Assembly: GCF_041248615.1 (NCBI RefSeq)
Contig: NZ_CP158426.1
From: Escherichia coli
Lineage (GTDB): Bacteria; Pseudomonadota; Gammaproteobacteria; Enterobacterales; Enterobacteriaceae
Direction: 5' to 3' (one strand)
DNA length: 64,000 bases
The position numbers were made by a program. Each line of letters opens with the position of its first letter. Within the stretch, counting starts at the first letter, position 1. Positions 57,001 through 64,000 of this stretch are shown piece after piece.

Positions 57001-60000
57001 CCATCGACGGCAGTGCCGCGGAAGGGGACGATGAAATCGCTCCGGAAGTGGACGTTGACGACGAGCCAGAAGAAGAATAATTTTACTTCTTCATGCCAAA
57101 AGGGAGCTATCTCCCTTGTTTGAATTGAAAAGTCCAGGCTGCAAAGTCTGGGCTTTTGTCGTATTAGGGCGCGGTAAAGTTTTGCTGTGCTCGTAAAAAA
57201 TGGCTGGCTATACACAAGGAATGTGGCAATGAGTGGTGAAAAAAAGGCGAAAGGCTGGCGGTTCTATGGTCTTGTAGGTTTTGGCGCAATAGCACTGCTT
57301 TCCGCTGGCGTCTGGGCGTTGCAATATGCTGGCAGTGGGCCAGAAAAAACGTTGTCGCCGCTGGTGGTGCACAACAATCTGCAAATCGATCTCAATGAGC
57401 CGGACCTCTTTCTCGACAGCGACTCTCTGAGCCAGCTTCCCAAAGATCTCCTTACCATTCCGTTTCTCCACGATGTTCTGAGTGAAGATTTCGTTTTCTA
57501 TTATCAGAATCATGCCGATCGTCTGGGCATTGAAGGCAGCATTCGCCGCATTGTCTATGAACACGATCTCACGCTGAAAGATAAGCTCTTTTCTTCACTC
57601 TTAGATCAGCCCGCGCAGGCGGCGCTATGGCACGATAAACAAGGCCATCTTTCACATTACATGGTGCTGATCCAGCGCAGTGGTTTAAGCAAACTGCTGG
57701 AGCCATTGTTGTTTGCCGCTACCAGCGACAGCCAGTTAAGCAAAACGGCAATCAGTAGTATTAAGCTAAATAGTGAAACCATCCCGGTTTATCAGTTGCG
57801 CTATAACGGCAATAACGCCCTGATGTTCGCGACTTATCAGGACAAGATGTTGGTATTTTCCAGCACGGATATGCTGTTTAAAGATGACCAGCAGGATACC
57901 GAAGCCACGGCGATCGCAAGTGATTTGTTGAGCGGTAAAAAACGCTGGCAAGCCAGCTTTGGCCTGGAAGAGCGTGCTGCTGAAAAAACGCCAGTACGCC
58001 AGCGCATCGTGGTCAGCGCCAGGTTGCTGGGGTTTGGCTACCAGCGATTAATGCCTTCTTTTGCTGGCGTACGCTTCGAAATGAGCAACGACGGCTGGCA
58101 TAGCTTTGTGGCGTTAAATGATGAATCCGCCAGCGTAGATGCCAGTTTCGATTTTACGCCGGTATGGAACAGTATGCCTGCCGGGGCCAGCTTCTGTGTG
58201 GCGGTGCCGTATTCGCATGGTATTGCCGAAGAGATGCTTTCGCACATCAGCCAGGAAAACGACAAGCTGAACGGGGCGTTAGATGGTGCAGCCGGGCTGT
58301 GCTGGTATGAAGACTCAAAATTACAAACCCCGTTATTTGTTGGTCAATTTGATGGCTCAGCCGAACAGGCACAACTGCCTGGGAAACTGTTTACGCAAAA
58401 TATTGGTGCGCACGAAAGCAAAGCGCCAGAAGGTGTTTTGCCGGTAAACCAGACTCAGCAGGGCGAAGCGCAAATCTGGCGTCGCGAAGTGAGTTCCCGA
58501 TACGGTCAGTATCCGAAAACACAGGCGGCGCAACCCGATCAATTAATGTCGGATTATTTTTTCCGCGTGTCGCTGGCGATGCAAAACAAAACGCTGCTTT
58601 TCTCCCTCGATGACACGCTGGTTAATAACGCCCTGCAAACACTGAATAAAACCCGTCCGGCAATGGTGGATGTAATACCCACTGATGGCATCGTTCCGCT
58701 CTATATCAATCCACAAGGCGTGGCGAAACTGCTGCGTAACGAAACGTTGACCAGTCTGCCGAAGAATCTCGAACCGGTTTTTTATAACGCCGCACAAACT
58801 TTATTAATGCCGAAGCTGGACGCTTTATCTCAACAACCGCGTTATGTCATGAAGCTGGCCCAGATGGAACCCGGTGCCGCCTGGCAGTGGCTACCCATAA
58901 CCTGGCAGCCGCTATGAGGCACGGGCTGCTGGCGCTGATTTGCTGGCTGTGTTGTGTTGTTGCCCATAGCGAAATGCTGAATGTCGAACAATCCGGGCTG
59001 TTTCGCGCCTGGTTTGTACGCATTGCACAGGAACAGCTCCGCCAGGGGCCAAGTCCGCGCTGGTATCAGCAGGATTGTGCGGGCCTGGTGCGATTTTCGG
59101 CGAACGAGGCGCTGAAAATTCACGACAGCAAATGGCTAAAAAGTAACGGCATAGCAAGTCAGTATTTGCCGCCTGAAATGACGCTAACACCTGAACAGCG
59201 TCAACTGGCGCAAAACTGGAATCAGGGGAACGGGAAAACCGGCCCCTACGTGACCGCGATTAATTTGATTCAGTACAACAGCCAGTTTATTGGCCAGGAC
59301 ATAAACCAGGCGCTGCCTGGCGATATGATTTTTTTCGATCAGGGCGATGCCCAGCACGTAATGGTCTGGATGGGGCGTTACGTCATCTACCACACCGGAA
59401 GCGCCACGAAAACTGACAACGGAATGCGCGCAGTCAGTCTGCAACAACTTATGACATGGAAGGACACCCGATGGATACCCAACGATTCCAATCCCAATTT
59501 CATTGGCATTTATCGTTTAAATTTTCTGGCGCGATAGCAGCGTGCTTGTCCCTGTCTCTTGTGGGAACAGGGCTTGCTAATGCTGATGATTCGCTTCCTA
59601 CCAGTAACTATGCGCCGCCCGCCGGGGGAACATTCTTTTTGCTCGCTGACAGCAGTTTTAGCAGCAGTGAAGAGGCGAAAGTGCGACTGGAAGCGCCGGG
59701 GCGTGATTATCGGCGTTATCAGATGGAAGAGTACGGCGGTGTGGACGTTCGTCTGTATCGTATTCCTGACCCGATGGCATTTTTGCGCCAGCAGAAAAAT
59801 CTGCATCGCATTGTGGTTCAACCGCAATATCTGGGCGACGGGCTGAACAACACGCTGACCTGGCTGTGGGATAACTGGTACGGCAAATCTCGCCGCGTGA
59901 TGCAGCGTACTTTCTCTTCTCAGTCACGGCAGAATGTGACTCAGGCGTTACCCGAATTACAGCTCGGCAATGCCATTATTAAACCTTCCCGTTATGTACA

Positions 60001-63000: not shown

Positions 63001-64000
63001 GGTGCTGGCGTGGGCACAGGAGATGAATCTGCCGTGCAAAACGTTGTTGAAAGGGTTGGATGAAGCTATCGCCCGGCGCGGAACTAAAACTGAAGATTTC
63101 TCTGAGGAAGACACCCGCGATATCAATGACAGCCTGATCCTCGATACACCGGAATCTCAACTGGCAGATGCGGTGGCAAACGTCTTAACCATGACGTTGC
63201 TGAAAAAAGCGCAGTTGAAGTCCACGGTGATGCCAAAGGTTCAGCAATATGCGTGGGATAAAGCGGCAAACAGCAATCAGCCGCTGGCGCACACGGTTGT
63301 GCTGCTCAATAGCGGTGGTGACGCTACCCAGGCGGCCGCTATTTTAAGTGGTTTGACCGCTGAGCAATCCACTATTGAGCGCGCGCTGGCCATGAACTGG
63401 CTGGCGAAATATATGGCGACAATGCCTCCGGTTGTGTTGCCTGCGCCTGCGGGCGCATGGGCTAAACATAAGTTAACTGGAGGGGGCGAATACTGGCGTT
63501 GGGTTGGTCAGGGCGTGCCGGACATTCTCTCTTTTGGTGACGAATTATCGCCGCAAAATGTGCAGGTCCGCTGGCGTGAACCGGCAAAAACGGCTCAACA
63601 AAGTAACATTCCGGTGACCGTTGAACGCCAGTTGTATCGGCTTATCCCTGGTGAAGAAGAGATGAGCTTTACTCTGCAACCGGTGACCAGCAATGAGATT
63701 GACAGCGATGCGCTGTATCTCGATGAAATCACGCTTACCAGCGAGCAGGATGCAGTTCTGCGCTACGGTCAGGTGGAAGTACCGCTCCCGCCGGGAGCCG
63801 ATGTTGAGCGCACAACATGGGGCATTTCGGTCAATAAACCCAACGCCGCGAAACAGCAGGGGCAATTGCTGGAAAAAGCGCGAAATGAAATGGGCGAACT
63901 GGCCTATATGGTGCCGGTGAAAGAACTGACGGGAACGGTCACTTTCCGCCATTTGCTGCGCTTCTCGCAAAAAGGGCAATTCGTTCTGCCTCCTGCTCGT

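Follow-up and report, generated by a model that had tools for sequence, protein, structure and literature searches.

Bacterial alpha-2-macroglobulins (A2Ms) of the so-called Type I carry a CLEQ motif and a lipobox and are encoded adjacent to pbpC (PMC3735191). Of these, ECAM/YfhM from E. coli and Sa-A2M from Salmonella are represented by the structures 4ziq, 4ziu, 5a42, 4rtd and 4u48. MagD of Pseudomonas aeruginosa (PA4489), a product of the magABCDEF operon and assigned to 'Type II', is a periplasmic protein whose stability depends on MagB, that associates with the inner membrane and that traps proteases non-covalently (PMC3735191, PMC5764988). The E. coli protein YfaS was still termed uncharacterized in a 2024 paper (PMC10882980), and our literature search found no experiments on it. 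Here we analyse yfaS in a 64,000-nucleotide stretch of E. coli DNA from contig NZ_CP158426.1 (hereafter the window), and conclude that it in all likelihood encodes a periplasmic, thioester-less alpha-2-macroglobulin of the MagD/YfaS kind ('Type II') that is translated from the ATG at 59471 and would serve as a protease trap.

Translation of window positions 59414–64000 (all features lie on the + strand) yielded a stop, the TGA at 59414–59416, followed by 1528 sense codons and no further stop up to the window edge at 64000. By simple arithmetic, the odds of an open run of this length in random sequence are about (61/64)^1528, or roughly 1e-32. A preliminary description of this DNA had likewise noted a frame open for more than 1500 codons that did not appear in the ORF list, and we find the same: the + strand entries after 59537 are all short (59559–59846, 60375–60563 and 63693–63920). 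ORFs that extend beyond the first or last base of the input are left off this list, and yfaS, whose frame continues for another 75 bases after position 64000, is absent for that reason; what looked like a 'missed ORF' is a technical window-edge artefact. Positions 59417–64000 are 100% identical to E. coli NZ_OW967178.1, which differs from the window at only five positions across the ~59.6 kb compared. In this near-identical sequence the frame continues beyond 64000 to a stop 75 nt past the edge (window-equivalent 64073–64075) and is followed by yfaQ and yfaP, the downstream genes that had been anticipated. The window itself holds codons 1–1510 of 1534 (59471–64000), and the full translation from NZ_OW967178.1 is 1534 residues long with a single terminal stop, its only cysteines being Cys25 and Cys1189. 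The identical protein has been deposited as EFO1340509.1 and under other accessions, and is present on 9 independent contigs. A sequencing indel in the window frame was also considered and is excluded by this recurrence and by a gapless alignment to K-12 over 4,605 nt. The long frame is the known, already annotated E. coli core-genome gene yfaS, intact in an ordinary chromosome.

With respect to genomic context, the RefSeq annotation of NZ_OW967178.1 gives the order yfaA-yfaT-yfaS-yfaQ-yfaP followed by atoB, placing yfaS third in its operon, with gyrA directly upstream of yfaA. In the extracted NZ_OW967178.1 locus, numbered from its own first base, the yfaS frame ends at 10659. The first gene, yfaA (57229–58917; RefSeq CDS at 3813–5501 of that locus), encodes a MagB-like DUF2138 protein that matches the NCBIfam equivalog PRK11410 (E 1.4e-272) and shares 47% identity with its DUF2138 counterpart in the mag operon of P. 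citronellolis. The second, yfaT (58914–59537; RefSeq CDS at 5498–6121 of the locus), belongs to the DUF1175/MagC family and ends with the TAG at 59535–59537; its product shares 70% identity with the MagC-family protein of P. citronellolis, including a conserved C-terminus. In pairwise comparison with one Pseudomonas mag operon the operon partners range from 47 to 70% identity, and the four are orthologues of MagB, MagC, MagE and MagF, such that magD and yfaS share DUF2138/MagB, MagC/DUF1175, DUF2300/MagE and YfaP/MagF as partners. Along the entire mature protein, YfaS shares 55% identity with a closely related Pseudomonas homologue. Whereas the P. aeruginosa operon is magABCDEF, the E. coli operon has five genes, the counterparts of magBCDEF, and no equivalent of magA, and for this reason the E. 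coli complex may differ from that of Pseudomonas. Searches of NCBIfam returned no family for YfaS or YfaT. A promoter scan from gyrA to yfaS, including the region upstream of yfaA, found no sigma-70-like promoter. A terminator-like hairpin is located just 3' of gyrA, at 57100–57117.

The preliminary description placed an A2M-family gene downstream of yfaA-yfaT, and this assignment is borne out by the RefSeq gene order, by Pfam and by Foldseek. The profile searches it had proposed recovered an MG2 macroglobulin domain at residues 344–440 (60500–60790; PF01835, E 5.7e-19), an A2M bait-region domain, A2M_BRD, at residues 661–806 (61451–61888; PF07703, E 3.6e-16), an A2M family domain at residues 871–953 (62081–62329; PF00207, E 9.4e-13) and a bacterial MG10 (bMG10) C-terminal domain at residues 1409–1517, which is cut by the window edge (63695–64000; PF17973, E 9.9e-06). 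Pfam gave no match for the first ~340 residues or for a region that AlphaFold models as an all-helical, thioester-domain-like (TED-like) domain at residues ~1051–1314 (62621–63412; helices at model residues 117–380). Two AlphaFold models (pLDDT 85.5 and 67) show successive beta-sandwiches, and in the more confident of the two, covering the C-terminal 600 residues (pLDDT 85.5, pTM 0.84), a C-terminal beta-domain is visible at the MG10 region. A bait loop at residues ~802–874 (61874–62092) is predicted to be disordered (pLDDT <50, model residues 764–836). The N-terminal ~150 residues were modelled with low confidence; residues 1–198 of MagD have been reported as presumably flexible (PMC5764988). 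Taken together, the models and the Pfam domains show that YfaS has the full alpha-2-macroglobulin architecture, comprising a string of MG domains, a disordered bait loop, a helical TED-like domain and, at the C-terminus, MG10.

The best Foldseek matches of the two models were ECAM and Sa-A2M (E 2.6e-32 and 1.5e-20), which are the closest structural relatives of both halves of YfaS. Specifically, the C-terminal model matched the Salmonella A2M structure 4u48 best (E 1.5e-20) and also the ECAM structures 5a42 and 4ziu, the latter spanning MG7 to the C-terminus. A single YfaS sequence searched against PDB sequences gave only weak matches to complement C5 and found neither ECAM nor Sa-A2M; they were reached only with a 16-sequence profile, which detected ECAM/YfhM at E 2e-12 together with the Salmonella protein and aligned the helical domain of YfaS with the TED of ECAM. 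Although fold and domain order are common to YfaS and these Type I proteins, identity in the structural alignments is only 13–18%, and YfaS lacks all three Type I traits: it has no CxEQ motif, it fails the lipobox pattern, and its neighbours are yfaT and yfaQ rather than pbpC. More distantly, YfaS shares the MG string and the bait or activation loop with eukaryotic alpha-2-macroglobulin, A2ML1, CD109, C3/C4/C5 and insect TEP1, as well as the helical thioester-type domain and the C-terminal MG domain, at 9–16% identity. Unlike these eukaryotic thioester-containing proteins, YfaS is a bacterial, monomer-sized and operon-encoded protein, periplasmic by prediction and devoid of covalent capture chemistry. 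Complement C5 also lacks a thioester. Judged from its sequence, YfaS combines the 'Type II' traits of operon context, a signal peptide without a lipobox and the absence of a thioester.

Within the disordered loop, the stretch TNRSERR (residues 851–857; 62021–62041) matches the mapped MagD bait, ANRSERG, which occupies residues 847–853 of that protein (PMC5764988). N852, R853, S854 and R856 are invariant in our alignment. Classical A2Ms have variable baits; that of YfaS is instead strongly conserved, which may point to a narrower target or to another one.

In terms of the thioester, the preliminary description saw no CxEQ motif in the part of yfaS within the window, and none is present anywhere in the complete 1534 residues. 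The family profile aligns the PYGCLEQTAS segment of ECAM with a stretch of YfaS that includes GGVIN (residues 1068–1072; 62672–62686), the degenerate equivalent of GCxEQ. Relatives have GCVEQ, GGVEQ, GGVIN or GGVVN at this position, and the tabulated cysteine-less Pseudomonas relatives, as distinct from MagD itself, have GGVEQ; compared with them, the site in YfaS has degenerated further. MagD and YfaS are alike in possessing a signal peptide and in lacking the thioester cysteine, but differ in that MagD is reported to have no cysteines whereas YfaS has two. These features indicate that YfaS is a member of the A2M fold family without covalent thioester chemistry. Most relatives with the same type of operon (DUF2138-MagC-A2M-DUF2300-YfaP) nevertheless keep CxEQ; the P. 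citronellolis homologue, for example, has CVEQ. For this reason, absence of the thioester appears to be a poor defining feature of the 'Type II' operon family, and its loss in YfaS and MagD appears to be derived. MagD and YfaS would then have degenerated independently or stepwise, from GCVEQ to GGVEQ to GGVIN, perhaps with a switch to trapping by non-covalent means alone.

The start of yfaS, which the preliminary description put at 59471 and overlapping the last 22 codons of yfaT, is very probably the ATG at that position, contrary to the RefSeq annotation. A Shine-Dalgarno-like GGAAGGA (59458–59464) can be read 6 nt upstream of this ATG, and GGAAGGA or GGAACGA precedes the equivalent ATG in three relatives (L011, L012 and L003). 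The ATG lies within the yfaT codons ACC-CGA-TGG (T-R-W), giving an overlap of 67 nt (59471–59537), or 22 codons plus 1 nt of yfaT, that shows no differences from K-12. A comparison of the yfaT/yfaS junction in E. coli (GCGCGATAGCAGCG) and P. citronellolis (GCCCGATGAAGCTG) points to how this arrangement arose: the Pseudomonas position equivalent to the ATA at 59534–59536 (Ile22) is an ATG within an ATGA start/stop overlap, and the ATA appears to be the remnant of this ancestral start. Because the start at the yfaT stop mutated to ATA, the E. coli gene would begin 63 nt further upstream than in Pseudomonas, inside the preceding gene. Translation from ATG 59471 alone provides a Shine-Dalgarno sequence, an n-region, a 21-residue uncharged core and A-N-A at −3 to −1, and in Superficieibacter and metagenome relatives the overlapping ATG is the only in-frame start from which the hydrophobic core is encoded. 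Models of 1534 residues exist at NCBI for the exact YfaS protein, and the E. albertii protein is likewise annotated at 1534 residues. The resulting predicted 38-residue Sec signal peptide (59471–59584) has two basic residues in an n-region that, at 17 residues, is unusually long, and cleavage is predicted after Ala38, before DDSLPTSNY. Ala38 is an invariant alignment column and is followed by a conserved mature N-terminus; on the basis of these simple features and the homologues, YfaS is probably cleaved at this site.

The alternative for the start is that RefSeq is right or nearly so, and that translation begins past the yfaT stop without overlap, perhaps by re-initiation, at GTG 59561–59563 (Val31) or TTG 59546. 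GTG 59561 is the PGAP choice for this record (WP_024190062.1) and for the 1504-residue representative and members of a cluster of 40,950 (~41,000 deposited sequences), and TTG 59546 is only 9 nt past the yfaT stop, a spacing compatible with translational coupling. Ahead of the conserved cleavage site, however, GTG 59561 leaves only the 8 residues MGTGLANA and TTG 59546 leaves 13 uncharged residues, and neither codon has a basic n-region or a Shine-Dalgarno sequence. Wherever the start of a homologue is unambiguous, its signal peptide is complete, and two close relatives have called downstream starts that truncate or remove the hydrophobic core. We consider a downstream start unlikely; the RefSeq start at GTG 59561 is probably wrong and removes the signal peptide. 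The preliminary description also called the GAIAAC stretch lipobox-like, and YfaS could accordingly be read as a lipoprotein, processed by signal peptidase II just ahead of Cys25 and lipid-anchored like ECAM/YfhM. I-A-A-C does agree with the core lipobox [LVI][ASTVI][GAS]C, Cys25 falls in the usual position range with Arg5 near the N-terminus, and AIAAC is retained in E. albertii. Nonetheless, YfaS fails the PROSITE-type lipoprotein pattern, as the uncharged stretch between Lys17 and Cys25 is only 7 residues long, and Cys25 is followed by 13 hydrophobic residues and the conserved A-x-A, exactly where the signal peptide of every homologue ends. Most homologues, moreover, lack the cysteine or carry it outside a lipobox context, and MagD, which has none, is held at the membrane via MagB (PMC3735191, PMC5764988). 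The lipobox claim is not upheld, and a lipid-anchored YfaS seems very unlikely; Cys25 instead appears to belong to the hydrophobic core of a conventional signal peptide.

A further reading concerns the gene as a whole, namely that yfaS is intact but decaying, having lost its thioester chemistry and being on its way to a pseudogene across E. coli. In its favor, the three key thioester residues are all gone, and inactivations have occurred independently in K-12, in O157:H7 and in JL05. The preliminary description took the K-12 copy to be a split pseudogene, and a pseudogene it is: its record carries an 'internal stop'. The suggested alignment to K-12, made with NZ_OW967178.1, located the lesion at a single in-frame nonsense change with no frameshift, TGG to TGA at codon 1368 (W1368*; 63572–63574). 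This TGA allele occurs in 364 of 5,426 complete genomes, every record shown being a K-12 laboratory derivative, while TGG within K-12-type flanking sequence occurs in 1412 genomes. An intact yfaS is the norm in E. coli; the window strain does keep an intact A2M-like gene, as had been proposed, but is not special in doing so. The further losses are frameshifts in O157:H7 (Z1816, one record, which also has an internal stop in yfaQ) and in JL05; both fall within homopolymer runs and may reflect errors of assembly. A 32-mer spanning the O157:H7 frameshift, which is in a run of G, had no BLAST match, probably owing to low-complexity filtering. Repeated loss in K-12, the O157:H7 record and JL05 indicates that yfaS is dispensable at least in culture. 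Against decay, comparison with K-12 across 4.6 kb gives yfaS a dN/dS of 0.085, close to that of the operon neighbours, and yfaS is under purifying selection. In addition, ~40,950 deposited sequences cluster with YfaS, and MagD still traps a protease without a thioester (PMC5764988). A relic is accordingly an improbable description of yfaS.

Building from these comparisons, we propose that YfaS acts as a non-covalent periplasmic trap. Translation would begin at ATG 59471, within the last 22 codons of yfaT, and signal peptidase I would remove the 38-residue signal peptide after Ala38, both steps following from sequence comparison. By analogy with P. aeruginosa MagD, mature YfaS would be periplasmic and retained at the inner membrane through the MagB-like YfaA together with YfaP, and a protease entering the periplasm would cut the bait loop around TNRSERR and be trapped non-covalently.

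These findings bear on how the protein and its family are studied. K-12 is a poor guide for yfaS, because a nonsense codon specific to its lineage (W1368*) knocks out what most E. coli keep intact; studies of YfaS function accordingly call for non-K-12 strains or a repaired allele. The PGAP start probably strips the signal peptide, and would mislead both localisation predictions and the design of expression constructs. The joint proposition that the RefSeq start is wrong, the enterobacterial start having moved 63 nt upstream into conserved codons of yfaT so that 67 nt are dual-coding, and that the Type I/II thioester split is not a property of the operon family is one that we regard as evenly balanced. 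Finally, natural pairs of thioester-positive and thioester-negative proteins could help to probe how the thioester-less forms trap proteases.

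Translation of 59414-64000 showed a TGA at 59414-59416 followed by 1528 sense codons extending to the window edge, a stop-free run with a chance probability of ~1e-32 by our own arithmetic, (61/64)^1528. The preliminary description was therefore correct in reporting an open frame of more than 1500 codons missed by the ORF track. The miss is an artefact that says nothing about the sequence itself, as the ORF tool omits ORFs that run off source ends and this frame runs off the window edge; past 59537 the plus-strand entries in the ORF list are all short. In NZ_OW967178.1, an E. 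coli chromosome (isolate 362, from a Madrid hospital) that is 100% identical over the yfaS region, the gene is preceded by gyrA, yfaA and yfaT, continues intact to a stop 75 nt beyond the window end, and is followed by yfaQ, yfaP and atoB, in line with the continuation anticipated past 64000. Translation from ATG 59471 yields 1534 aa, with no stop other than the terminal one. This exact sequence has already been deposited (EFO1340509.1 and others), and the cluster holding EFO1340509.1 comprises 40,950 sequences named alpha-2-macroglobulin (A2M) family protein. The assignment of an A2M-family gene downstream of yfaA-yfaT is upheld by record annotation and by Pfam, profile and structure matches, and yfaS here is a known, annotated gene. 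Overall, the initial reading is supported apart from its hint of a lipobox, and the only additions to existing annotation are the corrected start site and the distribution of the thioester motif.

A match to the yfaS region is present in 5,384 of the 5,426 complete E. coli genomes, in most cases with 95-99% identity. In K-12 the gene had been described as a split pseudogene, which is right: a K-12-type record labels yfaS a pseudogene and notes an "internal stop". A nonsense codon rather than a frameshift is responsible, as the alignment of the two alleles is gapless and the one disabling substitution turns codon 1368 from TGG into TGA (window 63572-63574). The TGA allele was counted with a 31-mer that is allele-specific because megablast requires a 28-base exact word, so that a central mismatch abolishes the match. 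It was present in 364 of 5,426 genomes, and the records listed are all K-12 laboratory derivatives, such as MG1655, W3110, C600, MC4100 and XL1-Blue. The TGG version of the same 31-mer was found in 1,412 genomes, a count that leaves out genomes with other flanking bases, this strain among them. Further inactivations were seen in two strains. O157:H7 Z1816 (locus L006) has a +1 frameshift within the G-run of codons 1067-1070 (window-equivalent ~62670), where a 10-G run replaces GGGGTGGCG at the very position of the former thioester. In JL05 (locus L007) a -1 frameshift, within an A-run, affects codon 1245 (window-equivalent ~63203). Both frameshifts are homopolymeric and could be real or assembly errors; in Z1816 yfaQ also carries an internal stop. 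The dN/dS of yfaS relative to the K-12 copy is 0.085 (98 synonymous and 29 non-synonymous differences), comparable to the values of its operon neighbours. The gene is thus intact here as was proposed, yet this is not peculiar to the strain: an intact, selectively maintained yfaS is the normal state in E. coli.

With respect to the source strain, only 3 of the 5,384 matching genomes carry the yfaS region at ≥99% identity, and its lineage is rare among complete genomes. The window and NZ_OW967178.1 differ at five positions in ~59.6 kb (48985-53416 being left out of the comparison), two of them in gyrA and the others at 5362, 25986 and 34758. The gyrA gene (54453-57080) encodes S83L (TCG to TTG) and D87H (GAC to CAC) at bases 54700 and 54711, codons that are wild type in NZ_OW967178.1 and are classic QRDR positions for fluoroquinolone resistance. 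As these are among just five differences, the source is a near-clonal, quinolone-resistant relative of isolate 362. The adjacent ubiG (53584-54306, minus strand) is 94.7% identical to K-12 (38 differences in 723 nt), its neighbours being 96.5-99.2% identical, and is a locally more divergent segment, possibly through recombination. Annotation of the near-identical RefSeq record also places IS1397 (IS3 family) between inaA and yfaE (43873-45221), a frameshifted elaD pseudogene (6693-7917), and rpnE, an ISNCY-family transposase gene, next to a truncated hypothetical gene (32628-33833).

With the RefSeq start, GTG 59561 (Val31), yfaS encodes 1504 aa and does not overlap yfaT. This GTG has no Shine-Dalgarno sequence and lies 8 residues ahead of the conserved cleavage site. 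TTG 59546, also without a Shine-Dalgarno sequence, would supply 13 uncharged residues and no basic n-region, and ATG 59456, again lacking one, would add 5 N-terminal residues to the signal peptide from 59471 (43 in total). ATG 59471 is preceded 6 nt upstream by GGAAGGA and encodes a basic n-region (R5, K17), a 21-residue uncharged core and A-N-A. The predicted cleavage site exactly precedes the mature N-terminus, [DGE][DE]x[LV]PxSxY in all homologues, and A38 is an invariant alignment column. ATG 59471 sits within yfaT codons ACC-CGA-TGG, which belong to the conserved C-terminus WKDTRWIP. In two close relatives, Superficieibacter sp. HKU1 and a metagenomic contig, the called TTG/GTG starts truncate the hydrophobic core or remove it; in both, the open frame reaches back to the equivalent ATG, which again overlaps by 67 nt and shares the Shine-Dalgarno sequence, and no other start codon encodes the core. 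A comparable overlap, of 61 nt, is part of the gene call in a more distant relative (37% identity), and 1534-aa models exist at NCBI for E. coli and E. albertii. In P. citronellolis the start of the A2M gene and the stop of magC share an ATGA; E. coli has ATAG at this position, so the ancestral ATG is now Ile22 (ATA, 59534-59536). Taken together, the Shine-Dalgarno sequence, the signal peptide and the relatives' junctions indicate that translation very probably begins at 59471, overlapping yfaT, as originally proposed, and not at the RefSeq start. Called and overlapping starts compare as 59561 versus 59471 in the window and 3001 versus 2884 in each of two relatives' loci (L011 and L012). Gene-calling programs apparently pass over the 67-nt overlap as a rule, choosing a downstream GTG or TTG and thereby removing the signal peptide from enterobacterial YfaS; the 1504-aa model represents a ~41,000-sequence cluster that mixes 1504- and 1534-aa models.

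The same N-terminus had been suggested to hold a lipobox-like GAIAAC, which would make YfaS a lipoprotein through Cys25. Although I-A-A-C fits the four-residue lipobox core, such an anchor is very improbable. The longer PROSITE-type lipoprotein pattern fails, with just seven uncharged residues between Lys17 and Cys25. Moreover, Cys25 sits midway along the hydrophobic core, 13 residues upstream of the conserved A-x-A site, and a Cys in lipobox context is missing from most homologues. MagD, the P. aeruginosa relative, has no Cys and no lipid anchor (PMC3735191, PMC5764988).

In terms of architecture, a Pfam search for A2M and MG domains matched MG2 (aa 344-440), the A2M bait-region domain (aa 661-806), the A2M domain (aa 871-953) and bacterial MG10 (aa ~1409-1517). 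Searching PDB sequences with YfaS alone gave weak complement C5 matches only; a profile of 16 homologues retrieved E. coli YfhM/ECAM (E 2e-12), Salmonella A2M, C5, CD109 and TEP1. Residues 935-1534 gave a confident AlphaFold model (pLDDT 85.5, pTM 0.84) consisting of a beta-sandwich, an all-helical domain (protein ~1051-1314) and a C-terminal beta-domain; structurally it is closest to Salmonella A2M (4u48, E 1.5e-20) and ECAM (5a42, 4ziu), followed by C5, TEP1, CD109, A2ML1 and C3. Residues 39-940 were modeled with moderate confidence (pLDDT 67) as a string of beta-sandwich domains that best matches ECAM (E 2.6e-32) and contains one long disordered stretch (protein ~802-874). Within this stretch lies TNRSERR (aa 851-857), the counterpart of ANRSERG (847-853) in MagD. 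NRSER..VK.LERPRRE is invariant across the 16-sequence alignment, and from E. coli to Pseudomonas the bait segment at aa 850-868 (62018-62074) hardly varies. The baits of classical alpha-2-macroglobulins are hypervariable. The conserved bait might reflect a specific cognate protease or a processing site. Replacing ANRSERG with a TEV site demonstrated bait cleavage and non-covalent trapping by MagD (PMC5764988), which occurs in 165- and 100-kDa forms (PMC3735191, PMC5764988).

Relative to a P. citronellolis locus with YfaP_C, DUF2138, MagC, A2M, DUF2300 and YfaP_C genes, YfaA is MagB-like (47% identity), YfaT MagC-like (70%), YfaS MagD-like (55%) and YfaQ MagE-like (53%), and YfaP resembles both MagF (52%) and MagA (42%). 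Unlike the Pseudomonas mag operon, that of E. coli has no magA equivalent, since yfaA is directly preceded by gyrA and a terminator-like hairpin. MagD is periplasmic and inner-membrane-associated, binds MagA, MagB and MagF, and traps protease after bait cleavage with no covalent bond; MagB, the sole Mag protein with a predicted transmembrane segment, stabilises it (PMC3735191, PMC5764988). By homology, YfaS would act as MagD does. Our literature search found no experiment on YfaS itself, which was still "uncharacterized" in a 2024 paper (PMC10882980).

The reported lack of a CxEQ motif within the window holds for the whole protein, as only 24 residues fall beyond it: the full 1534-aa YfaS contains no C.EQ and just two cysteines. 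Profile alignment sets P-W-G-G-V-I-N-T of YfaS opposite P-Y-G-C-L-E-Q-T of ECAM, and judged from this alignment none of the three key thioester residues is preserved. "Type II" bacterial A2Ms are defined in the literature as lacking a thioester (PMC3735191, PMC5764988). Among the 120 closest homologues, the motif following P[YFW]G is CVEQ in 31, GVEQ in 20, SVEQ in 1, GVIN in 39 (carried by E. coli, Serratia and Yersinia) and GVVN in 9. The site states seen across relatives (loci L003/L004 of P. citronellolis, L008 and L009; proteins P0064-P0120 and P0135-P0183) are GCVEQ, GGVEQ, GGVIN/GGVVN and a few sporadic others. At the level of 50%-identity cluster representatives, full-length relatives at 32-51% identity nearly all have G-C-x-E-Q. 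Three CVEQ proteins whose context was checked (55%, 44% and 37% identical to YfaS) all reside in DUF2138-MagC-A2M-DUF2300-YfaP operons, so this operon type does not imply thioester loss, and YfaS and MagD are derived. Most mag/yfa-operon relatives of YfaS and MagD retain G-C-x-E-Q, and "Type II without thioester" is an apt description of MagD and YfaS but not of their family overall.
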